A DNA stretch of 64,000 nt from Enterobacteria phage vB_EcoM_IME339: the sequence record MH051915, one strand, 5' to 3'. Under the pieces are notes generated by a model. The model had not been told where the DNA came from, did no database searches, and saw only the letters and a program-made list of their open reading frames with translations. The position numbers and the translations under genes were made by a program. Below, piece by piece: positions 10,888-22,985 of this stretch (positions are counted from its first letter, which is position 1; each line of letters opens with the position of its first letter).

Positions 10888-11544
10888 TTATTTAGCCCTT
10901 CCTAATATTCTGGCCGCCTGAGCACATATTGATTCAAGGCGGTCATTACTTATATGATCATTTCTATACCAGTACATGGTTATTGTTCCAGCATAGATAT
11001 TATCCAAATTGAAATATGGACAACTGTACATGTAGTTTATTTCGGGAGTAGGCTTTTTAGTCGGTAAAAAAGCAAATTTTGAATTGGAATAATAATGACG
11101 TCCATTTAAATGGACTGTATATTCATCCATAGTTTTATCAACAGGATATCCTCCAAGTGATTTTTCACTTATTGTTGAAGGTAATTTTCCTTCATATGCT
11201 ATAATATCAACAAAATAGTTTAAGTTTTTAGGGCGGAAAGAATACACCGCACTAAAGTCTGCCTCAGATGATATGTGAACTATCTGGAGTTGTTCCAGGG
11301 CGACAGATTCAAAGCGTGCATTTCTTTCCTTTTCAATAATTTCACTGTATGTTTCATACTTTGATTGCTTATAGTACTCAAAGAAACTATCTCCCCTATA
11401 CCAAACAATCGCCATCATAAATAAAAGAATTACGACAGCTACTCGGGAAGCAAGAACATTCCCGGTAGCGTTATCTTTGAACAAGCGATCTAGAACACCC
11501 AACAGAATATCAGAGGGCGAAAATGATATTCTAGGTGCTGCCAT
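10888..11544 (-). CDS. t: holin
   Basis: 218 aa, same length as T4 holin T; N-terminal TM segment; downstream of gene 38. Confidence 0.85.
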   Translation of the reverse strand: MAAPRISFSPSDILLGVLDRLFKDNATGNVLASRVAVVILLFMMAIVWYRGDSFFEYYKQSKYETYSEIIEKERNARFESVALEQLQIVHISSEADFSAVYSFRPKNLNYFVDIIAYEGKLPSTISEKSLGGYPVDKTMDEYTVHLNGRHYYSNSKFAFLPTKKPTPEINYMYSCPYFNLDNIYAGTITMYWYRNDHISNDRLESICAQAARILGRAK

Positions 11545-11574
11545 AGACCCTCCTTTTAAGGATATTTATTCAAA

Positions 11575-12360
11575 TTATACTCTTGCACCATATATTGTAC
11601 CAACTTTAGTCCAAGTTGGAGCATTACCAGTAACAGCTTTACCTGCTGCACCGCCGTTATATTCTGATCCTTGACCGCGAATATTACATTTACCTCCTGC
11701 GGCACCGGCATCACCACCATTCCCGCCATTATAGATACCGTTGACAGACCCTTTACCGGGAGCAGAAATAGTACCAGCAGTAGCACCTTGTTCCATATTA
11801 GCAGACCCACCAGCAGCGCCAAATGGACGACCGCCGCCACCGCCAAAGGTTAATCTCATTTGTGAAAAAGGAGAATAATACCCGCCGCCACCGCCGCCAC
11901 CGCCGCCTGCGATAACACCATTGTTGTTAATACGTAATCTAGTTCCAATTCCGTTATTTATTGCAGTTCCTCCTGCTCCACCGGCAGAGTTATTTCCGCC
12001 ATTCCCGCCACGGCCCCAAACATGCACGCCTGAATTGATATTAAGTGTCACATATGCATTAGTTAATGAGCTAGGAAAATCTAAGCATGGAACACCAGTA
12101 GATTGAGAAACAATATTTCCTGTAATAGTAATAACAACAGGCGTGGACCCTTGTGCTTTTATCCAGTTTATTAATGTATCTTTATTATAAGAATTACTAG
12201 CACCAATGCTATAATATACTTCTTTAGATTGTCCGGCCATTGAGCTCATCCAACCGGGAACTGAAACACGGACTGCTCTCATTGCAGCATCCATCCAACG
12301 TTGTCCAGTTTCATTCACGGCAGATTCACCAATCCAGCCAGGAACACCTACAATTGCCAT
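11575..12360 (-). CDS. 38: gp38 receptor-binding adhesin, T2-type with glycine-rich motifs
   Basis: 261 aa; N-terminus MAIVGVPGWIGESAVNETGQRWM as in T2-family gp38; several poly-Gly blocks; T4 gp38 is a 183-aa chaperone instead. Confidence 0.8.
   Translation of the reverse strand: MAIVGVPGWIGESAVNETGQRWMDAAMRAVRVSVPGWMSSMAGQSKEVYYSIGASNSYNKDTLINWIKAQGSTPVVITITGNIVSQSTGVPCLDFPSSLTNAYVTLNINSGVHVWGRGGNGGNNSAGGAGGTAINNGIGTRLRINNNGVIAGGGGGGGGGYYSPFSQMRLTFGGGGGRPFGAAGGSANMEQGATAGTISAPGKGSVNGIYNGGNGGDAGAAGGKCNIRGQGSEYNGGAAGKAVTGNAPTWTKVGTIYGARV
11829..11907 (-). repeat. (GGN)n low-complexity repeat encoding poly-glycine motifs inside gene 38
   Basis: ccgccgccaccgcc runs on the plus strand; translated GGGGGGGGG on the minus strand. 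Confidence 0.7.
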
Positions 12361-12390
12361 TAAAAATCCTTAGAGGGCCGAAGCCCTCTT

Positions 12391-15300
12391 TTACATAAGT
12401 TTAGATTCAAGTTCTTTTACACGAGAAGAAAGCGTTTTCACAGCTTCAACCAGAAGAGCAATCTGGGCTTGAGAAGAAACAGTGAGTATTTTATTACCCT
12501 TTCTATCTTCTGTTTCACGGACAGCTTCTGGTAAAACGTCTTGTAACGTTTGAGCCACAATACCCGCTTCAGTTTCAATTGCCTCTCCACCGATGTATTC
12601 AGCTTTATCGTAAATGACACCGTTAAGTTTTTCAACTTTATCAAGTGCATTTTCGATAGGTTTGAAGTTGGATTTTAAACGAATATCAGAACGAATATAA
12701 ACGTTTGGAGCATTTATATTTTTGTATGAGTACAAATCACCATTTTGGAAACGGAATACTTGTACGCTGTTCGCATATATGTCTAATAATCCATCGCCAT
12801 TTTGCTTAATACCAGTATCGTTATCACCAAATGTTATACTGTTTCCACCGAGACCATTTGATGTATTGACACCAAAGGCACCTGTTTGTGGTAGCAGTAC
12901 TTTACCAGGGCAGTCTAGAGTACCGTCCATTGTAAAGCGCCATCTTGCTTGCTGGCCATTAGCATTGTCGCCACGTATACGAATAATACCATCACGCCAT
13001 CCAGCGGTGGTACCAGAGCCGACCCATCCAAATTCAAAGGTTTGGCGATAACCCGCCGAGCCGTAGTTACTGTATGCACCTACAATAGGATAATAACTGC
13101 CTGAATTAGATAAATCCCCATGGTCTGCCATAAAGGTGATTTTAGATTTCATTGTATCCGAGTTATCAGCCCAACCAGACGCTCCTCGCCAACCTGCTAC
13201 TACACGAGACGAGATATTACCTAAACTAGTATTACCACTAGTAACATTCAAGCCACCAGTAACATTCAAGCCACCGCCGGTAATATTTAGACCATGGTTC
13301 ATACCAACGCGACCATCAGCCATATTAATGGAGAAAGGTCTTAAATTATTCCAATCACCACTAGCCGCATTGGGTTTTTCTGACGTATTCTTGTCTGTAG
13401 CTAAAATATAAAAACTTCCACCATCATTTCGAATGATAGCAGCATTCGAATCAATATCATTACCTCTGGATTTAATACGTAAACCTTTTTGGTTATTGGT
13501 AACAAATTCACCACGAGTAACAACATCAGATTCGCCAGCAGCAAACATTCCATCGATGTTATTCAATAATCTTACAGTTTTACCTACTACATGACCTTCT
13601 GGAAGTGTTTCAACAATAGGTTGAATTCCTCCGTTAAGACCGACTACGGTTACTGTACTATTACTGGTGCATGAATATTCGATGACTAAAGCATTTGAAT
13701 ATCCTCCCACATAAACATAAACGTCATATGTATCATTGCTCGTGTTAACTGTGGCAATTTGTGAAAATGCTTCAGAAGTTCTGTTCCATAATGTAGCGTT
13801 AAGTCCTTTAGGATTATTATTTCCAGTTCTAAGAATTATTTCTGCGACAGAAGCTTGCCCATAACTTTTAAAATTAAATCCTGAACCGCCATATATTTTA
13901 AATGCTACTGTTCCAGTAGATTGAGGAATATTAACTGTCGCAAACTTATACCATCCAGTTGTGGCTCCGCCTGACCAACCACCAACATCGACTTTATTGT
14001 TTAACGTTGTATTTAAGTTGGCAAAATTACCAGTACCGCCTGTGATGTTGCCATCTGTACCAATTCGAATATTATTAATTTTAAGAGGCTTAGTAATATC
14101 GACAGTATCAGAGTTTAATGCAATACCATGTGAATAGGTGTAGTTATGCATACGAACGACGTTTCCGCCATCGCCAATACCTAAATACCATTTTGTAACA
14201 TCCGCTTTACGTCCTTGGATAAAGTTAGACGCTGCTTGAGAAGAAGCATTCAAAACAATACCGTCGGAATCCATGTTAACACGAAGTCTAACATCGGTTT
14301 GAACAAATTTTGATACGTTATCAATAGTAAGCAAATTTTTTCCAGCTTGTGTATGATTGCCCATCATAACACTGCCATTTGCGAGATTGATGGTAAATGG
14401 GCGTAAATTACTTATTCCACCACTTTCGCCAGCATCTTTAGGAGTTGGGATAATATAAAAGTTAGTTTCCGAACGACGGAAAATAGCACCGTATTCAGCA
14501 TTCCAAATTCTTAATGCATCAGCAGTTCCGCCAAATTTGGCTTGGCCGTTTATAGACATTCCGTTATTAGCAACTAAACTTGATTCAGTAACAATAGAAC
14601 CGGAAGCAGTAATACCACCAGAAGTTAATAAACCACCATTAACTCGGAGTTGAATAGGCCCGACAGTCGAACCAGGTGCAGGAGCTACGCGTTGAGAATA
14701 AAAATGGTAACCTTGCCCATCTGATACTTCAAAGACTGTTTCACGATTACGATCACCAGATGCGTTAAATGAATTTCCCCATGCTTTAACTGTAACAGGG
14801 CTTTTGTTTTGACCTGCGCGAGTACCACTGTTCCAGTATATACTTCTAGTACCATCTGCAGCCGTCGGGGCGTTAAACTGGAATCCCTGATTATCAGGTC
14901 CATCAATAATTATGCCTTTATTAAGACGAAAAGCTAATGTAGAATTAATACTTCCAGTTGCGGCATTAAAGCTAATACTTTCACCGCCGGTGGTTAACTT
15001 CAATATACCTGGGTTAACGTCTACACCTTCCTGAGTATTAATATTAGTTTTGCCTTTACCGCGGAAATAATGACTCATTTTACCGCCAGCATTGTACCCA
15101 ATATGCGTCTGGCCGTCTCCAGCATTGTTATTATCAGCTTGCGTTTGAACAGACAAGAAAGCGGCATTAGTGCCAGGCATAATCCATGTGGTGCCTTGGT
15201 CCTCGGAACGACCAAATATACCTTTACGAGTACTACGGAAACTGTCAGGAGTAATAGAAGCAACAGAATATCCACCGCCAACTAGATCAAATACACCAGT

Positions 15301-16239
15301 TTTTTTGTATGACAAGCCAGTTACAGTGTCACCGAGAACAAGATATTTATCGCCCATTACACCGACGTTGCCATAATCACTAGACGGGAAATTTGTAGTG
15401 AATGTACCTAATGCAAGGCTATTACGGCCTGCCATTCGTCCGTCATTACGAATGCCATATTGTTTAGATGATGGAGTATTACCTGTCCACCAAGACATTT
15501 CATCAGCCTGGCCAGTCTGAGCAGTACAAAGCTCATGCCACATAGTGCCACCTGATTTAGCTCGAACTTTACGAAGATAGTTTACACCATTTGTTTCACC
15601 GGTTCCAGGATAAACATACTGAACTAATGATTGTGAATCGTATTGTCCAAAGGCTTTAGAATCATGATTAATTAAATTAACACTAATAGTTGGTGTACTA
15701 ATAGAAGTTAAAGCAGTTAATTTGCGTGCCTGGAAGATACCACCATCAGTAGAAATGAAATGAAATTCTGAATTTTGAGCTCCCGCAGCGGTTCCTTGAC
15801 GAACACGCATTGTAATTACGCCTTCATTTTCAGACTGCGGTTTTGAATATAAAACGCCACGTTCTGAGCCATTTGTATTTTCAAACCAAAGATGGGCATT
15901 TGCAGTATCATTTATTGCTCTTGTATAAAATGAACCGGATGTTGATCTGAATACTGTAGCAGAAACAATATTACTTGCCGTAATAGTACCACTTGTAGAA
16001 AAATTTCCAAAGTTGTTTATTGGTCCATTGACGCGTAAAGTTCCATCAATAGTTACATTTCCATCAATTTGACCTCCTTTAGCAATACCTAGATCAATGA
16101 TATTTCCTGAATCATCTTTAGTAAAAATTGTTCTATCTTTTAAGTTTATAGCCAATTCACCTTCGGCTAATACTGAAGCAGCAGGACGTGCACCTGCGGT
16201 TTTGCTTCTTTTAAATTGTATTTGTTTTAAAGTAGCCAT
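12391..16239 (-). CDS. 37: long tail fiber distal subunit gp37 with C-terminal intramolecular chaperone (peptidase S74-like) domain
   Basis: 1282 aa (T4 gp37 is 1026 aa); C-terminal region carries [11 protein letters not shown]...LDKVEKL...[15 protein letters not shown]...LLVEAVKTL, matching the self-cleaving chaperone family. Confidence 0.85.
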
Positions 16240-16247
16240 AAGTCCTC

Positions 16248-16907
16248 TTAATAATAGCCGAAATCTTGAACAGAATCCTTAATTACGATTTGGTCAAATC
16301 GTGGAACATGTGAAGGTTGAGATGCGGGATTCTGTGAGAAAAAGTTTGGCGCTGTTAAATTACCTGTCATAGTATCGCCAGAACGCAACACTCTAGAGTT
16401 CGCATTTGCTGTAACAGTATTTATTGCTCCATCCACATAGTCCTTTCTAGTAAGGTCATTTGCGGCAATGGGCGCTGCGGCTTCGGCTCGCACCTGACGC
16501 TGTGAATTTATATTACCACGGGCCGAAATTTCACCGTCACGAACGTTAAAAACAATTGTCCTGGGTCCTGTTCCTTGAGATGATTTAAATCCGATACCAT
16601 ACCAAGATACTATATCAAGGTTAACCTTATCATAAGTTGCTCCATCACCTGGCCCAACAAACACCCCGGTCAGACCATTGCCAGCTGCCGGGACTTGAAT
16701 ACCCTTGTTAAAGATAACTCGGCCTAGATAAGTACCGCCATTAGCTTTAGAAACGAAATCGTTATCAGCAGCTTGTGGTTTATTATATTCTGAATATATT
16801 TTAAATGATTTATAGAGTACATCGTCACCGGCTGGATTCAATGGAAAATTTCCTTGATGCCAAATGACAGAGCCTCCAGTTGTTGAACCTACTTTTAAAT
16901 CAGCCAT
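16248..16907 (-). CDS. 36: long tail fiber hinge connector gp36
   Basis: 219 aa (T4 gp36 221 aa); synteny. Confidence 0.85.
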
Positions 16908-16930
16908 TGTATGCCCCTTTATTTTAATAG

Positions 16931-16938
16931 TATTTATA
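16931..16938 (-). promoter_or_regulatory. late promoter TATAAATA upstream of gene 36
   Basis: Plus strand reads tatttata, 24 nt upstream of the gp36 start. Confidence 0.55.
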
Positions 16939-16969
16939 AAGAAAAAGGGAACCCGAAGGCTCCCTCAAT

Positions 16970-18085
16970 TTATACTTCTCTAAATTCTTGCCCAAACACT
17001 TTACCAGTTTTAGACGATGCTTGCGTAGGAAGTACCATTATATCCGGAGGTGAAGCAGATTCACAGATATAATTAACACGAATGCCATTTACGCCAAATT
17101 CAGCAGGTTTCGAAATTCCGCCATTTCTTGACACTTCAGAAAAACTTAAATTCCTCATGCCACCTTGACCGGCTTGTGCAGTTCTTTGTGCGTATATCGT
17201 AAATCCTACTGCATTTTCTGGAACAACTACATAATCTTCCTTTAATTCCCAAGACCCAGCTTGTCCGGTAAACTCAGCTTGTGTCGAGGAAATATATCCA
17301 TTAGATGCGTTATAAAAACGGATAGATATATTTGTGGTTCCAAGCGCAAGTAAATCAGCATCGGCATATAATTGAGCTTTAAGATAAAGCACATCGCCAG
17401 GAATTAAATTATAATCAGAGAGTTTACTTATAGCAGCTGAAGTTGGTAATCGCGCAATTTCGTTATTAGTTCCACCAACCGCTGACATAAATTGCTCAAC
17501 GCTTTCGTATGTTCTTCTTGGAAAGCCGGTAGCTCCAACGTCTTCTAAACTGTCAAATACAACATCTAAAATAGTTTGATAATCATCTGTGCTTTTTCTA
17601 TTACTTAATTTAACATGCTCTAATGCAATAGCTCTTTTAGAAGAAGTGTAAAAAGCAGCATATGATACGTCGAATCTTGACAATATAGAATCAGATGGAA
17701 AAGCAGACGTTCCTGCGGTTCTTAGCCAAGATACTACTTCAGGAGGAAAATTAACCTTTCCGCTAGTTAATATAGCAACAAGTCTATTATTCGCCAAAGA
17801 ATTCATGAAACTAACAAAAGCAGCTGATGTAGTATCATTTGAAGTCGAAAAAGCATATGACTTACTATCAACTAATGCTCCTGTAGAAGGGTCAAAAACT
17901 CTTAAATGAAGACCTGCATTAAATGTTTGATTTCCGACAGGATTATCCTGAAATTTAACGTACGGTCCTGCTGTAGAAAGCGGGCAAGAACCCGCTATAC
18001 TTATTTTGTATCTTACTGAATTACTTTCCGATAAAAATGGCGTTTGGACGTATCCTTGTCCAAACTCTGCCATAAATTTTTCCAT
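16970..18085 (-). CDS. 35: long tail fiber hinge protein gp35
   Basis: 371 aa (T4 gp35 372 aa); synteny. Confidence 0.85.
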   Translation of the reverse strand: MEKFMAEFGQGYVQTPFLSESNSVRYKISIAGSCPLSTAGPYVKFQDNPVGNQTFNAGLHLRVFDPSTGALVDSKSYAFSTSNDTTSAAFVSFMNSLANNRLVAILTSGKVNFPPEVVSWLRTAGTSAFPSDSILSRFDVSYAAFYTSSKRAIALEHVKLSNRKSTDDYQTILDVVFDSLEDVGATGFPRRTYESVEQFMSAVGGTNNEIARLPTSAAISKLSDYNLIPGDVLYLKAQLYADADLLALGTTNISIRFYNASNGYISSTQAEFTGQAGSWELKEDYVVVPENAVGFTIYAQRTAQAGQGGMRNLSFSEVSRNGGISKPAEFGVNGIRVNYICESASPPDIMVLPTQASSKTGKVFGQEFREV

Positions 18086-18093
18086 AATACCTC

Positions 18094-21000
18094 TTATTCA
18101 ACCCATTCAAATTTAACAGATTTATTCACTGGGTCAGGAATAATGCGAACATTACCAATTCGCAAGAAATCACGAATAGTAAGATTCCCCATTGTAGCAT
18201 TATCAGATGGTAAAGCACCAATATCAGATGGTTGTGGAGGGTTACCTCCGTCAAATACCTGAACAAAACTTGACCAAGAGTTTTTGGTTTTCTGCCATGT
18301 ACGTGTCCAGCGAGTGGTACGCGCTTCTGGAGTCGTTGGATAAGTAATCCAATCTTGGTAAAGCGAATCAAGTGTGTTACCAAATTGAGTCAATGTACCA
18401 GGAGATTTAACCTCTTCTCCACGTTCTAAGTATGGAAGTCCAGTCACTTCATTAGTTTTTTCAACCATTTTAAAATAACCTGGGAACTGGTTATAAGTAG
18501 CTGAATCATTAATGTCAATTGACCAGAATCCTACAGTATCAGATGTTGGCGCACGGGTGTATAGGTCAGCAGTTTTAGTGCCCTGAGAACGAATTCTCGA
18601 GTTAACAGTTAAACCACCTGAATTTATAGTAGCACCTTTGGCAATGATTAAGCTTTCACCAATCGTTACTTGACCAGATGCATTATTAATAGATAAAGGA
18701 CGTAATCCATTAAATCCGCCAGTCTGATCACCCGATGCAGTGAGCATAAAATATGTGCTGCCGCCATCATTCCTGATAAAGAATCCATAATTACCACTTA
18801 TTGCTCTAAAAGCATTCGATGATTTGCTGATGAATTCACCATTAGCAGTAACTGAACTACCAAATGTTGCAACGCCGTTCGCGTTCAAAGAACCCGAAGC
18901 ATTGACATTTATCGGCATCACAGTACCATTGATACTAAACGTTATATTCCCAGCTTTATTACGTTGAGAATAAAAGTGATTAGACGTTTCATCACCAACT
19001 TCAAATACAGTAGAACGTGTTGTATCTGAACCGCCGCCAAACTGATTTCCCCAAACTCTGATAGTCATCGTCTGTACTGGGTTAGTTCCAGTTTGAGGTC
19101 CTTTCTCAAAAATCAGACGAGTTGCCGTTCCAGTATTAGAAATAGTTAATGTACTATTTGCCGAAACTGATCCACCAAACGTAGCAGTACTAGATGATAC
19201 AAGAGGGGCATTCAGATTCGTTTGTTGGGTTAAGGTTAGTGAACCATTAACCGTCTGTGCAATATCCCTACGAATGAACTGAGATGAATCTAGACCATCT
19301 AATAAATTCGCGTCAGCAGCTTTTGCTTTTAACGGCAAATAATTTGCTAATACACGGTTTAATTCATATGGTGATACTGCATAGCTATTTTTCTCGTATA
19401 GCTCTAAGCTCTGTGTAGAACCAACTGTATCATTACCAACGAATGTAATTGAACCAGATGAAGTTTTAACAAAGCCTCTTATTGCAGTAGTAGCTGCCCA
19501 AGTAGGTTCACTCTGCACAATCCATTTTAAATTTTTTGGAGATACAGCAGTATTTGCTGACGTTCCAGCCACAGTTTCAGACTGAGTCGCAACTTTAATA
19601 ACACCTTCCTGTGCTTCAGTAGATTTAGTACCTAAAAGCTTTTTAGGAGTTATTAAAACATTATCCAATGTTCCTGCAGCAGCTTCAACTTGTGTAGCTA
19701 CACGAAGTGTACCACGCTGTGTCTCATTTGCTTCAAGAATATTAAGGGTATAATGGTCCCAGAGAGTTCCTGATTCAACTAATCCAGATAGAGCAACAAC
19801 AGAAGTACGATCAGTACTATTAAATCTGGTTTTAATTTTTAATGGTGTAGAGATACGAGTATCGTCGACGCCTGCGTCGAATTCAACTTGCGTAGCAATT
19901 TCAGCTATACCACTTAAACTTTCAGTTGCTATACGGTCATTTAAAGTTTTAGGAGTGACTGCACGAGTATAATCAGTTCCTGTATTAACTTCACTTTGTG
20001 TAGCAATTTCAATTAAACCAATTCTTGCATCAGTTGATGTCTTTTTATGTAACGTTTCTGGCGTTACAACAGCATTTGCCCATCCTTCTTGACTCTGTCC
20101 AGCAATTACTTCACTTTCAACTGCTAAAATTACTGCACCTTGTTGCGTTGGAGTAGCTTTATACTGATCCAAAGCTTTAGGCGAAACGACTAAATTATTA
20201 GTGTTTTTATTATAAACGTTTGTACCATTTAATTCACGACTAGAAGCTGGAGTAGCTCCTGTAGTAGATACAAAAGTTACAATACCAGATAATGACTCAG
20301 AACCTTGTCGAGCTTGAAGCTTTTTAGGAGTGATGATTGTAGTATCATCAGTACCTGCATTAGTTTCCTGCTGCGTAGCAATTTCAGCAACACCTCTACG
20401 AGTTTCTGTAGCAGTTCTTTCATTCAGCTTTTTAGGAGTGATGATAATATCGTCAGCAAAAGAGAATGTAGTGTTCTGATTCACTTGAGCAGTAGTTGCT
20501 ATTCTTGCGATACCTCTACGAGTTTCTGTAGCAGTACGGTTAGCTAATGTTTCTGGAGTAATTGCTAATTCTTTTTGTGGAGAATTTTCTAAATCAGCAT
20601 TAGCTTGAGCTTGTGTAGCTAAAGCAATTACGCCTAATCTTGCTCTAGTAGAATCATTTAAAGAATCAACTCTTTCTACAGTTGGAACGTTTTGCTGTAC
20701 AACCCAGTATTTTCCGTCAGAATCTTCTATATAAGCAAGTTGTAAAACTGGAACATAATTAGTTTCACCGTTAAAAACTAATTCTTGAACAGTTACCCAT
20801 TCAGCTTCAGGCGGATATTCTGAACGTTTTGGGAACTGCAGCAATTGAACTGAAGAAGCAATTTTATCTTCACCGGCAGCTTTGATTTTAACTGTTTGTC
20901 CTTTTCTCATGTAATTCATGGAAATTTTAACAGTATCACCAACAGAAATATTAGTTGGAAGCTGGAGTTCAATTGTTTGAGTTATTCCATTATTCGCTCC

Positions 21001-21963
21001 AAATACCATAACTTCTTCATTTGGACGAATGTTTGAATTAGTCGTTATGATACGTAAACGTGCTTTACTGTCTCCGTCAAACAATCTCCACAATTTTTCA
21101 TTATCATCATACATCAAGAAACCGTCAATAGATGTACGGCCTTCAATAGAATGAGTTCCATCTTCTTGTACTGATGTAGTTTCATCGTATGTAGTAACAA
21201 TTGTATGATAAAGAGGATTTAATTTATCCAAATCGACGAAATTAATAATATCGCCGTGATTAGCAAATCTCGGAAGTTTAATATTTATCGGTGCAGCAGA
21301 AGTAAATCTACGTACGATAAAATCGTTGGATTGTGCTTGATAAGTATTCGCTGGTGTTACAATTACAGCTTCTCTACTATAATCAGCAACATACATTTGC
21401 CACAGACGATTACTAAAAATTAAAACTAACTGTGACTTTGGATGAGTCATTAGTACTGAACGTACTTGTTCGCCTCTAAAGTTTACAATACTTTGCACTG
21501 GAGCTACAATTAAAACTTGGTTAACTCCAGGTTTTCCTCCAATGTCTTGGAGAACGATAGTATCACCGTCAATTGGAGTAGATGGTAAAGTAAATGTAAT
21601 ATCATTACCAGCTGCAGTGTTAACCGAAATAGCTTCACCGGATTTTAATTGATATGAACCAGATGAAACTGTAATCCAGTTAGCATCAGTACGTAATGCT
21701 CTCCAGCGCCCGCTATTAAAAGCTCCTGCCGGTTTTGGAATATCATTTATAGCAGCCCAAAAGCGGTTATCATAAATGATTACAAAATCTTTTAAATATC
21801 CACGAGTTGGATCGTATTGTTGAACTGTGTTTTCTTGAATTAGGTAATCAACGTTAACACCGTCAGTTCCTACGGTACGATCAGCTAAAGCTACGTTGAT
21901 TATTTTATCGCCACCTGCGTCCAGACCGTCTTCTGCTCTGAACTTTCTTTTAATCTCGGCCAT
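18094..21963 (-). CDS. 34: long tail fiber proximal subunit gp34
   Basis: 1289 aa, same length as T4 gp34; internal repeated ATQ...TPKKL motifs. Confidence 0.9.
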   Translation of the reverse strand: MAEIKRKFRAEDGLDAGGDKIINVALADRTVGTDGVNVDYLIQENTVQQYDPTRGYLKDFVIIYDNRFWAAINDIPKPAGAFNSGRWRALRTDANWITVSSGSYQLKSGEAISVNTAAGNDITFTLPSTPIDGDTIVLQDIGGKPGVNQVLIVAPVQSIVNFRGEQVRSVLMTHPKSQLVLIFSNRLWQMYVADYSREAVIVTPANTYQAQSNDFIVRRFTSAAPINIKLPRFANHGDIINFVDLDKLNPLYHTIVTTYDETTSVQEDGTHSIEGRTSIDGFLMYDDNEKLWRLFDGDSKARLRIITTNSNIRPNEEVMVFGANNGITQTIELQLPTNISVGDTVKISMNYMRKGQTVKIKAAGEDKIASSVQLLQFPKRSEYPPEAEWVTVQELVFNGETNYVPVLQLAYIEDSDGKYWVVQQNVPTVERVDSLNDSTRARLGVIALATQAQANADLENSPQKELAITPETLANRTATETRRGIARIATTAQVNQNTTFSFADDIIITPKKLNERTATETRRGVAEIATQQETNAGTDDTTIITPKKLQARQGSESLSGIVTFVSTTGATPASSRELNGTNVYNKNTNNLVVSPKALDQYKATPTQQGAVILAVESEVIAGQSQEGWANAVVTPETLHKKTSTDARIGLIEIATQSEVNTGTDYTRAVTPKTLNDRIATESLSGIAEIATQVEFDAGVDDTRISTPLKIKTRFNSTDRTSVVALSGLVESGTLWDHYTLNILEANETQRGTLRVATQVEAAAGTLDNVLITPKKLLGTKSTEAQEGVIKVATQSETVAGTSANTAVSPKNLKWIVQSEPTWAATTAIRGFVKTSSGSITFVGNDTVGSTQSLELYEKNSYAVSPYELNRVLANYLPLKAKAADANLLDGLDSSQFIRRDIAQTVNGSLTLTQQTNLNAPLVSSSTATFGGSVSANSTLTISNTGTATRLIFEKGPQTGTNPVQTMTIRVWGNQFGGGSDTTRSTVFEVGDETSNHFYSQRNKAGNITFSINGTVMPINVNASGSLNANGVATFGSSVTANGEFISKSSNAFRAISGNYGFFIRNDGGSTYFMLTASGDQTGGFNGLRPLSINNASGQVTIGESLIIAKGATINSGGLTVNSRIRSQGTKTADLYTRAPTSDTVGFWSIDINDSATYNQFPGYFKMVEKTNEVTGLPYLERGEEVKSPGTLTQFGNTLDSLYQDWITYPTTPEARTTRWTRTWQKTKNSWSSFVQVFDGGNPPQPSDIGALPSDNATMGNLTIRDFLRIGNVRIIPDPVNKSVKFEWVE

Positions 21964-21997: not shown

Positions 21998-22005
21998 TAT
22001 TTATA
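21998..22005 (-). promoter_or_regulatory. late promoter TATAAATA upstream of gene 34
   Basis: Plus strand reads tatttata, 35 nt upstream of the gp34 start. Confidence 0.6.
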
Positions 22006-22038: not shown

Positions 22039-22067
22039 AGAAATCTCACTAATTGAACGAGGTTCAT

Positions 22068-22985
22068 ATGGATTTAGAAATGATGCTGGATGAAGATTAC
22101 AAAGAAGGAATCTGCTTAATTGACTTTAGTCAAATTGCGCTTTCAACTGCTTTGGTAAACTTCCCAGATAAAGAAAAAATTAATTTATCAATGGTTCGTC
22201 ATTTGATATTGAACTCAATTAAGTTTAATGTCAAAAAAGCAAAAACTCTTGGATACACTAAAATTGTACTGTGTATCGATAACGCGAAATCTGGATACTG
22301 GCGTCGTGATTTCGCTTATTACTATAAGAAAAACCGTGGAAAAGCACGAGAAGAATCTACTTGGGACTGGGAAGGTTATTTTGAATCCAGTCATAAAGTT
22401 ATAGATGAATTGAAAGCTTATATGCCATACATCGTTATGGATATTGATAAGTATGAAGCAGATGACCATATTGCTGTTCTTGTTAAAAAGTTCTCTTTAG
22501 AAGGGCATAAGATTTTAATCATTTCATCGGATGGTGACTTTACTCAACTTCACAAATACCCAAATGTTAAGCAATGGTCACCGATGCACAAGAAATGGGT
22601 TAAAATTAAAAGCGGTTCTGCTGAAATTGACTGTATGACTAAAATCCTTAAAGGCGACAAAAAGGATAACGTTGCTTCAGTTAAAGTACGGTCTGACTTT
22701 TGGTTTACCAGAGTTGAAGGTGAACGAACTCCTTCAATGAAAACCTCTATTGTTGAAGCTATTGCTAATGACCGCGAGCAAGCTAAGGTGCTTCTCACTG
22801 AATCTGAATATAATCGGTATAAAGAAAATTTAGTTCTAATTGATTTTGATTATATTCCTGATAATATTGCTTCAAATATTGTGAATTACTATAATTCATA
22901 TAAATTACCACCGCGTGGCAAAATTTATTCATATTTTGTAAAAGCGGGTCTTTCTAAATTAACTAATAGCATTAATGAATTTTGA
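22068..22985 (+). CDS. rnh: RNase H (5-prime to 3-prime exonuclease, FEN family)
   Basis: 305 aa from MDLEMM, same length and N-terminus as T4 RNase H. Confidence 0.9.
   Translation: MDLEMMLDEDYKEGICLIDFSQIALSTALVNFPDKEKINLSMVRHLILNSIKFNVKKAKTLGYTKIVLCIDNAKSGYWRRDFAYYYKKNRGKAREESTWDWEGYFESSHKVIDELKAYMPYIVMDIDKYEADDHIAVLVKKFSLEGHKILIISSDGDFTQLHKYPNVKQWSPMHKKWVKIKSGSAEIDCMTKILKGDKKDNVASVKVRSDFWFTRVEGERTPSMKTSIVEAIANDREQAKVLLTESEYNRYKENLVLIDFDYIPDNIASNIVNYYNSYKLPPRGKIYSYFVKAGLSKLTNSINEF

Follow-up and report, generated by a model that had tools for sequence, protein, structure and literature searches.

A probable T2-type distal long-tail-fibre module of Tequatrovirus with a predicted S74 self-cleaved gp37 and a Tsx-type gp38 in Enterobacteria phage vB_EcoM_IME339

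Introduction

Which kind of receptor-binding tip ends the long tail fibre of a T-even-like phage, how would that tip be put together, and which bacterial surface protein would it recognize? These questions are raised by genes 37 and 38 in a stretch of 64,000 nucleotides (nt) from Enterobacteria phage vB_EcoM_IME339 (sequence record MH051915), referred to below as the window, whose positions are counted from its first letter. The two genes, both open reading frames (ORFs) on the minus strand, very probably represent the T2-type distal long-tail-fibre module of a Tequatrovirus, in which gp37 would be cleaved by its own C-terminal peptidase S74 domain and would carry a gp38 adhesin of the Tsx type.

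12391..16239, minus strand: gene 37, long tail fibre distal subunit precursor (1282 amino acids (aa), 136.6 kDa; ORF)
11575..12360, minus strand: gene 38, predicted tail-fibre tip adhesin (261 aa, 25.8 kDa; ORF)

An earlier note on this DNA had given exactly these two frames, together with a length of 1026 aa for gp37 of T4, and all of these values agree with the sequences.

The gp37 precursor and its C-terminal domain

gp37 falls into PHROG 1699 ('long tail fiber protein distal subunit', E-value 0) and carries the Pfam domains Gp34_trimer, gp37_trimer and Peptidase_S74. The trimerisation domains, which are homologous to solved structures of gp34 and gp37, lie upstream of the S74 domain, and the latter forms the extreme C-terminus of the protein. 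Residues 1184-1241 match the Peptidase_S74 profile PF13884 over its entire length (positions 1-58 of 58; 56.5 bits, cut-off 22, E-value 3.4e-15), far better than chance would give, and the Ser-x4-Lys dyad (Ser1184/Lys1189) is intact at the start of the domain. The intramolecular chaperone end that the earlier note had recognized in gp37 is thus borne out, and the four motifs it had quoted are present, namely YIRSDIRLK from aa 1181, LDKVEKL from aa 1199, a 15-residue motif from aa 1226 and LLVEAVKTL from aa 1262. The parts of the precursor that follow from these matches are as follows.

12394..12690, minus strand: S74 C-terminal intramolecular chaperone domain (aa 1184-1282, 99 aa, 10.9 kDa; Pfam PF13884)
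12688-12690, minus strand: codon of catalytic Ser1184 (SDIRLK motif)
12673-12675, minus strand: codon of Lys1189 (SDIRLK motif)
12691..16239, minus strand: predicted mature gp37 (aa 1-1183, 125.7 kDa, ending ...NAPNVYIR; cut placed from the S16 gp37 alignment)

Aligning the C-terminus with known S74 domains, a check that the earlier note had proposed, places SDIRLK opposite SDRRIK of S16 gp37 (6F45_A) and ADLRAK of MYRF (7DC3; myelin regulatory factor, S74), with the same Ser-Lys spacing as in T5 pb1 (Ser1264/Lys1269); the alignment with the S16 gp37 construct 6F45_A extends over aa 1128-1280. T5 pb1, the K1F endosialidase and MYRF belong to the same Pfam family, share the Ser/Lys dyad and its spacing, and hold the domain at the end of a trimeric beta-helix. 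In T5 and K1F, however, release unmasks a binding or enzyme domain of the same chain, whereas here it is thought to uncover a docking site for a separate adhesin.

Comparison with T2 (LC348380) shows that the chaperone domain is identical at 97 of 99 positions, the 100 residues before the predicted cut at 99 of 100, and the last ~280 aa of gp37 at 98-99%. The two proteins nevertheless differ in length (1341 aa in T2 and 1282 aa here) and are 30-85% identical over the first ~1000 aa. T2 gp37 figures as the classical case of C-terminal processing (PMC3157838), and gp37 of both T2 and T6 is described in the same paper, with reference to Drexler et al. 1986, as being proteolysed C-terminally and afterwards receiving gp38 as a cap. 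In S16, the chaperone domain autocleaves between the serines of DLNVS^SDRRIKK and exposes the docking surface for gp38; T2-type Yersinia phages have DVYIR^SDGRLKI at the corresponding place, and the sequence before the cut in the T2-type fPS gp37s is very unlike that of S16 (PMC7917993). In T5 and K1F, the serine departs with the chaperone (PMC4690869). Because the cut precedes the catalytic serine in S16, T5 and K1F, the site in this gp37 is predicted to be NVYIR^SDIRLKS, between Arg1183 and Ser1184, which would release 99 aa. Autoproteolytic release of the domain is itself expected by homology, T2 gp37 being processed according to PMC3157838 and S16 gp37 being reported as cleaved. The earlier note had foreseen removal of the last 98 residues, encoded at 12391..12687; the C-terminal release is retained here, but those coordinates comprise 98 codons and the stop and begin at Asp1185, and a cut before Ser1184 raises the predicted fragment to 99 residues.

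The last 100 aa of the predicted mature gp37 would provide the docking surface for gp38. This arrangement differs from that of T4, whose gp37 (1026 aa) has its own receptor-binding tip and no S74 domain: similarity to T4 becomes undetectable beyond ~aa 800 of gp37, and the T4 tip (aa 801-1026) gave only chance matches in gp37 (E-value at least 0.3) in a BLAST (Basic Local Alignment Search Tool) comparison.

Within the shaft, aa 463-627 and 904-1001 of gp37 are homologous to the C-terminal trimerisation region of the same phage's gp34, with 33-39% identity. This similarity points to internal duplication or to exchange between the proximal and distal half-fibres.

Architecture of the gp38 adhesin

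gp38 matches the Pfam families PF05268 (GP38; 241.8 bits against a cut-off of 25, E-value 9.3e-72) and PF21721 (Gp38_N; 64.6 bits against a cut-off of 25, E-value 8.2e-18) and falls into PHROG 2056 ('tail fiber protein; host specificity', E-value 8e-105). From aa 8 to aa 259 it can be aligned with the S16 adhesin of known crystal structure (6F45_D, E-value 4.5e-49), and it also aligns with the receptor-binding domain of PP01 gp38 (9V85, E-value 6e-33). Glycine makes up 23% of the protein, including the runs G152-G160 and G173-G177, and in an alignment of gp38 from five phages the glycine blocks are conserved while the intervening segments vary. Such a scheme of conserved glycine-rich motifs alternating with hypervariable segments has been described for gp38 (PMC3157838). 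Three regions can be delimited.

12235..12360, minus strand: gp38 N-terminal attachment domain, T2-type (aa 1-42; Pfam Gp38_N; Trp9, Trp22, Trp37)
11578..12015, minus strand: gp38 glycine-rich receptor-binding region, a predicted polyglycine-II (PGII) sandwich (aa 116-261)
aa 161-172, 182-212 and 224-237 of gp38, minus strand: T6-type variable loops (from the alignment)

W9, W22 and W37 align with the three tryptophans that hold S16 gp38 on the trimer of gp37 in a (gp37)3-gp38 architecture (PMC6851490), and a 3:1 stoichiometry may be expected here by the same homology. S16 (PDB 6F45) serves as the structural model for the mechanism, sharing whole-length gp38 homology, the three tryptophans, the polyglycine motifs and an alignable gp37 C-terminus with S-D-x-x-x-K; it differs in having a chaperone domain of 113 aa, against 99 aa here, and in binding OmpC of Salmonella. 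From these matches gp38 can be classed as a T2/S16-type polyglycine adhesin, in line with the glycine-rich T2-family adhesin proposed in the earlier note, and presence at the virion fibre tip and receptor binding are its predicted roles.

Variable loops and the predicted receptor

The five-phage alignment divides gp38 into parts of different affinity. The attachment domain (aa 1-45) is 98% identical to that of T2 and 67% to that of T6, the corresponding values for aa 151-180 are 53% and 97%, and those for aa 116-261 are 55% and 79%. One loop reads YYSPFSQMRLTF here and YYSPFPQMRLTF in T6, another GSANMEQGATAGTISAPGKGSVNGIYNGG and GSINMQSGATGGTISSPGSGSVNGIYNGG, respectively, and a further loop, CNIRGQGSEY, is identical in T6. 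Judged by this alignment, gp38 is naturally chimeric, with an attachment domain of the T2 type and variable loops of the T6 type. Its likeness to T6 is confined in this respect, as the attachment domain and central beta-helix are only 34-67% identical to those of T6, and T6 gp37 (994 aa) has another C-terminus and chaperone subtype (~42% identical). At ~51-55% identity the variable loops do not resemble those of T2, and this adhesin is therefore not expected to share the FadL/OmpF specificity of that phage.

Over its full length, gp38 is identical at 259 of 261 positions (99.2%) to gp38 of the BASEL phage Bas39 FriedrichMiescher, and it is 84% identical to gp38 of Bas43. The primary receptor of Bas39 was determined experimentally to be Tsx (PMC8594841, supplementary table), Bas43 also uses Tsx (PMC8594841), and so does T6 (PMC3157838). 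Two surveys of gp38, one of them PMC3157838, found that adhesins with similar C-terminal parts share a receptor and that the receptor predicted most often is Tsx. On account of the near-identity to the Bas39 protein, the similarity to that of Bas43, the T6-type loops and this survey rule, the predicted receptor is most likely the Tsx channel of E. coli, an outer-membrane nucleoside channel. The loop alignment that the earlier note had suggested for receptor prediction has thus yielded a candidate. A literature search for a gp38-Tsx structure found nothing relevant.

Foreign gp38 is accepted by T2 gp37 only if it has a T2-type N-terminus (PMC12892980). Since the end of gp37 and the N-terminus of gp38 both carry T2-type parts in this locus, the two proteins should form a compatible pair. 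The fibre tip is treated in the literature as the host-range determinant (PMC3157838, PMC6851490, PMC12892980), the role that the earlier note had also given it.

Proposed assembly and alternative explanations

On the model of S16, three gp37 chains would fold into a beta-helical fibre with the aid of their own C-terminal S74 domains (aa 1184-1282). Once the trimer has folded, Ser1184, activated by Lys1189, would cut the Arg1183-Ser1184 bond, so that a 99-aa fragment of 10.9 kDa would be released from each chain and a blunt fibre end exposed. One gp38 monomer may then dock through its N-terminal helical domain, with W9, W22 and W37 inserting into three symmetry-related pockets of the gp37 trimer, and the T6-type hypervariable loops displayed on the polyglycine-II sandwich would bind Tsx and set the host range.

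Several points weigh against this scheme and are considered here together with the explanations that compete with it. A few residue changes in T6-type loops were enough to give phage PST the use of OmpA and access to Yersinia (PMC3157838), and one of the differences from Bas39, R169K, lies inside a variable loop, although arginine is the T6 residue at this position too. It is therefore conceivable, if unlikely, that the adhesin recognizes a receptor other than Tsx, or not Tsx alone, for instance OmpA or a protein of another enterobacterium; near-identical gp38s come from Shigella phages, and the gp37 shaft is common with a phage isolated on Hafnia paralvei, whose gp37 is 99.5% identical. The Tsx use of Bas39 and Bas43 argues against such a change of receptor, gp38 of the Hafnia phage itself shares only 67% identity with this one, and in S16-type fibres the binding site has been proposed to lie on gp38 and not on the gp37 shaft (PMC6851490). 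As to the processing site, the position of the S74 cut varies by one residue among structurally studied proteins, and phi29 has been modelled with the serine retained. The same architecture with a cut after Ser1184, which would release 98 aa and leave the serine at the end of mature gp37, is quite improbable all the same, given that S16, the closest structurally studied gp37, is cut before the serine of SDxxxK (PMC7917993), that T5 and K1F lose the serine, and that the phi29 density was called less convincing (PMC4690869). Finally, an AlphaFold2 single-sequence model of gp37 aa 1084-1282 places helices in the chaperone region, but its predicted local distance difference test (pLDDT) score of 47 is too poor to confirm the fold of the family, a trimeric coiled coil of helices flanked by alpha/beta elements.

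The S74 domain might instead stay in the virion, uncleaved or as a folding aid only, with gp38 bound elsewhere. Retention of this kind is very unlikely, considering that the catalytic serine and lysine are intact, that the domain so closely resembles that of T2, whose gp37 is processed according to PMC3157838, and that an uncleaved chaperone masks the fibre tip in T5 (PMC4690869) while cleavage exposes the docking surface in S16 (PMC7917993). It is extremely improbable that gp38 is an assembly chaperone of the T4 type, absent from the virion. The legacy annotation of homologues, 'distal long tail fiber assembly catalyst', is all that speaks for such a role; T4 gp38, an unrelated chaperone of 183 aa, gave no BLAST match to this gp38 even at an E-value of 10, and this result, together with the adhesin Pfam families and the match to the S16 structure, rules the T4-type chaperone out, in a fibre whose gp37 also lacks a T4-type receptor-binding domain. 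A self-cleaved gp37 capped by a Tsx-type gp38 is accordingly the reading retained below.

Mosaic ancestry of the locus

The proteins of the window were compared with their counterparts in T4, T2, T6, Bas39 and the Hafnia phage vB_HpaM_IsaacDaniel, with the following identities (%).

gp34: T4 94.7, T2 93.2, T6 93.3, Bas39 97.8, IsaacDaniel 98.4
gp35: T4 98.4, T2 96.8, T6 96.0, Bas39 98.4, IsaacDaniel 98.9
gp36: T4 82.6, T2 97.3, T6 67.1, Bas39 81.3, IsaacDaniel 80.4
gp37: T4 52.9, T2 71.8, T6 31.9, Bas39 57.6, IsaacDaniel 99.5
gp38: T4 17.5 (no BLAST hit), T2 65.9, T6 65.1, Bas39 99.2, IsaacDaniel 67.4

Homology to T4 runs through genes 34-36 and on into gp37 as far as ~aa 800, with identities of 95% for gp34, 98% for gp35, 83% for gp36 and 56% for this part of gp37. 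Judging from these values, gp34 and gp35 are conserved in all the T-even phages compared and do not discriminate between phage types, while gp36 is clearly of the T2 type. The first 400 aa of gp37 are nearer to T4, and aa 1000-1282 are 98-99% identical to T2. The earlier note had described genes 34 to 36 as T4-like and only the tip as being of another type. T4 homologues of all three genes exist, and gp34 and gp35 are 93-98% identical to those of T4, T2 and T6 alike; the statement does not hold for gp36, which is closer to T2 (97.3%) than to T4 (82.6%), nor for a sharp boundary at the tip, since the locus is a patchwork in which gp37 itself shifts from T4-like to T2.

The gp37 of IsaacDaniel likewise has 1282 aa, whereas its own gp38 has 267 aa and different loops. 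Bas39, conversely, shares the adhesin but differs in gp37, which has 1260 aa there. At the DNA level, the sequence tracks the Hafnia phage from ~12300 upward and Bas39 from 11575 to ~12800, and the two tracts overlap in a near-identical shared block. Identical gp38 proteins occur in other contigs, and gp38 is identical at 261/261 positions to the gp38 recorded for vB_EcoM_IME339; the gp38-identical contigs carry other versions of gp37, one of 1293 aa at 85.8% identity and another at 54.6%. gp36 has 221 aa in Bas39 and the contig relatives, against 219 aa here. Near-identical gp38s are also found in phages isolated on Shigella.

The gp38 gene differs from that of Bas39 by 29 synonymous and 2 non-synonymous codons, and the copies encoding the identical protein in other contigs differ by 11-34 nucleotide changes, all synonymous. 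Because the DNA differences are almost all synonymous, strong purifying selection on gp38 is indicated, and the comparisons further suggest module exchange around the adhesin; both strong selection on the adhesin and module exchange are known features of this locus (PMC3157838). No record in the phage collection searched was at least 99% identical to the window over its first 25 kilobases, the best reaching ~95%, and the exact gp37 sequence was absent from the large protein collection searched. For these two reasons, the combination of a Hafnia-phage-type shaft with a Tsx-type adhesin appears to be unrecorded in that phage collection, with all of its parts known.

From ~12200 to ~12870 runs a block of ~650 base pairs (bp) made up of the final ~60 codons of mature gp37, the region for the 99-aa chaperone domain and that for the attachment domain of gp38; its conservation is 93-100% between phages with only 55-86% identity in the fibre shaft. 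One speculative and fairly unlikely interpretation is that this block is more than a disposable folding aid: it might be held constant because it couples cleavage to the loading of gp38, and it might also have acted as a recombination linker that joined the Hafnia-type shaft with the Tsx-type adhesin.

Neighbouring genes and transcription signals

The region 10888-21963 of the minus strand constitutes a canonical T-even long-tail-fibre operon, in which genes 37 and 38 are accompanied by the following genes.

18094..21963, minus strand: gene 34, proximal half-fibre (1289 aa; ORF)
16970..18085, minus strand: gene 35, hinge (371 aa; ORF)
16248..16907, minus strand: gene 36, distal connector (219 aa; Pfam Phage_T4_gp36)
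10888..11544, minus strand: gene t, holin, downstream module boundary (218 aa; Pfam Phage_holin_T, E-value 1e-116)

Gene 38 lies between the chaperone-domain end of gene 37 and the holin gene t, and the order of gene 37, gene 38 and t is the same in T2, T6, Bas39 and IsaacDaniel; in T2, the shared order extends to 36-37-38-t. G+C content is 0.47 over gene 38 and ~0.35 in the flanks, a rise that probably results from the high glycine content of gp38 through GGN codons. Short ORFs that overlap genes 37 and 38 on both strands were dismissed as spurious, the long frames having strong homologues. In gp35, aa 58-126 match the Pfam family ILEI (PF15711, 'interleukin-like EMT inducer') with 34.3 bits against a cut-off of 27, and the same match is recorded for gp35 of related contigs. 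Beyond gene 34, the mechanically defined ORF of RNase H (22053-22985, plus strand) begins with TTG at 22053 and has 310 aa; the ATG at 22068 gives the T4-like start and a protein of 305 aa (MDLEMML...), the same as in T4. A tRNA scan and a search for Rfam families at the gathering threshold found neither tRNA genes nor Rfam families in the whole window (1-64000).

Candidate signals for transcription and mRNA structure are located as follows.

21998-22005, minus strand: T4-type late promoter motif TATAAATA, just upstream of gene 34
16945-16966, minus strand: C(UUCG)G tetraloop hairpin after gene 35, followed by a T-run and then by the late promoter motif
16931-16938, minus strand: T4-type late promoter motif TATAAATA, just upstream of gene 36
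12372-12389, minus strand: C(UUCG)G tetraloop hairpin in the gap that separates the stop of gene 37 from the ribosome-binding site of gene 38
11563-11570, minus strand: 7-of-8 variant of the late motif, AATAAATA, 19 nt before the start of holin gene t

No late-promoter motif was found directly upstream of gene 37 or gene 38, and genes 36, 37 and 38 are probably co-transcribed late in infection from the motif at 16931-16938. As the octamer occurs 10 times in the window against 9.3 expected, which is no enrichment, this assignment relies on position, as in T4. Both hairpins resemble the stable intercistronic hairpins that T4-like mRNAs typically contain, and the one at 12372-12389 is a putative mRNA stabiliser or attenuator.

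Significance

The architecture of such modules, their processing, the adhesin fold and the prediction of receptors from sequence are already published, through work on T2 in the 1980s, the S16 structure of 2018, the BASEL collection (2021) and surveys of gp38 (2011 and 2025); what is new here is only one more mosaic of known parts. Since the module determines the range of bacteria open to attachment by the phage, it is of relevance to host-range prediction and fibre engineering. On the reading of a self-cleaved gp37 and a Tsx-type gp38, attachment of this phage would depend on Tsx, and the T2-type parts on both sides of the gp37-gp38 junction would predict which pairs of the two proteins are compatible.

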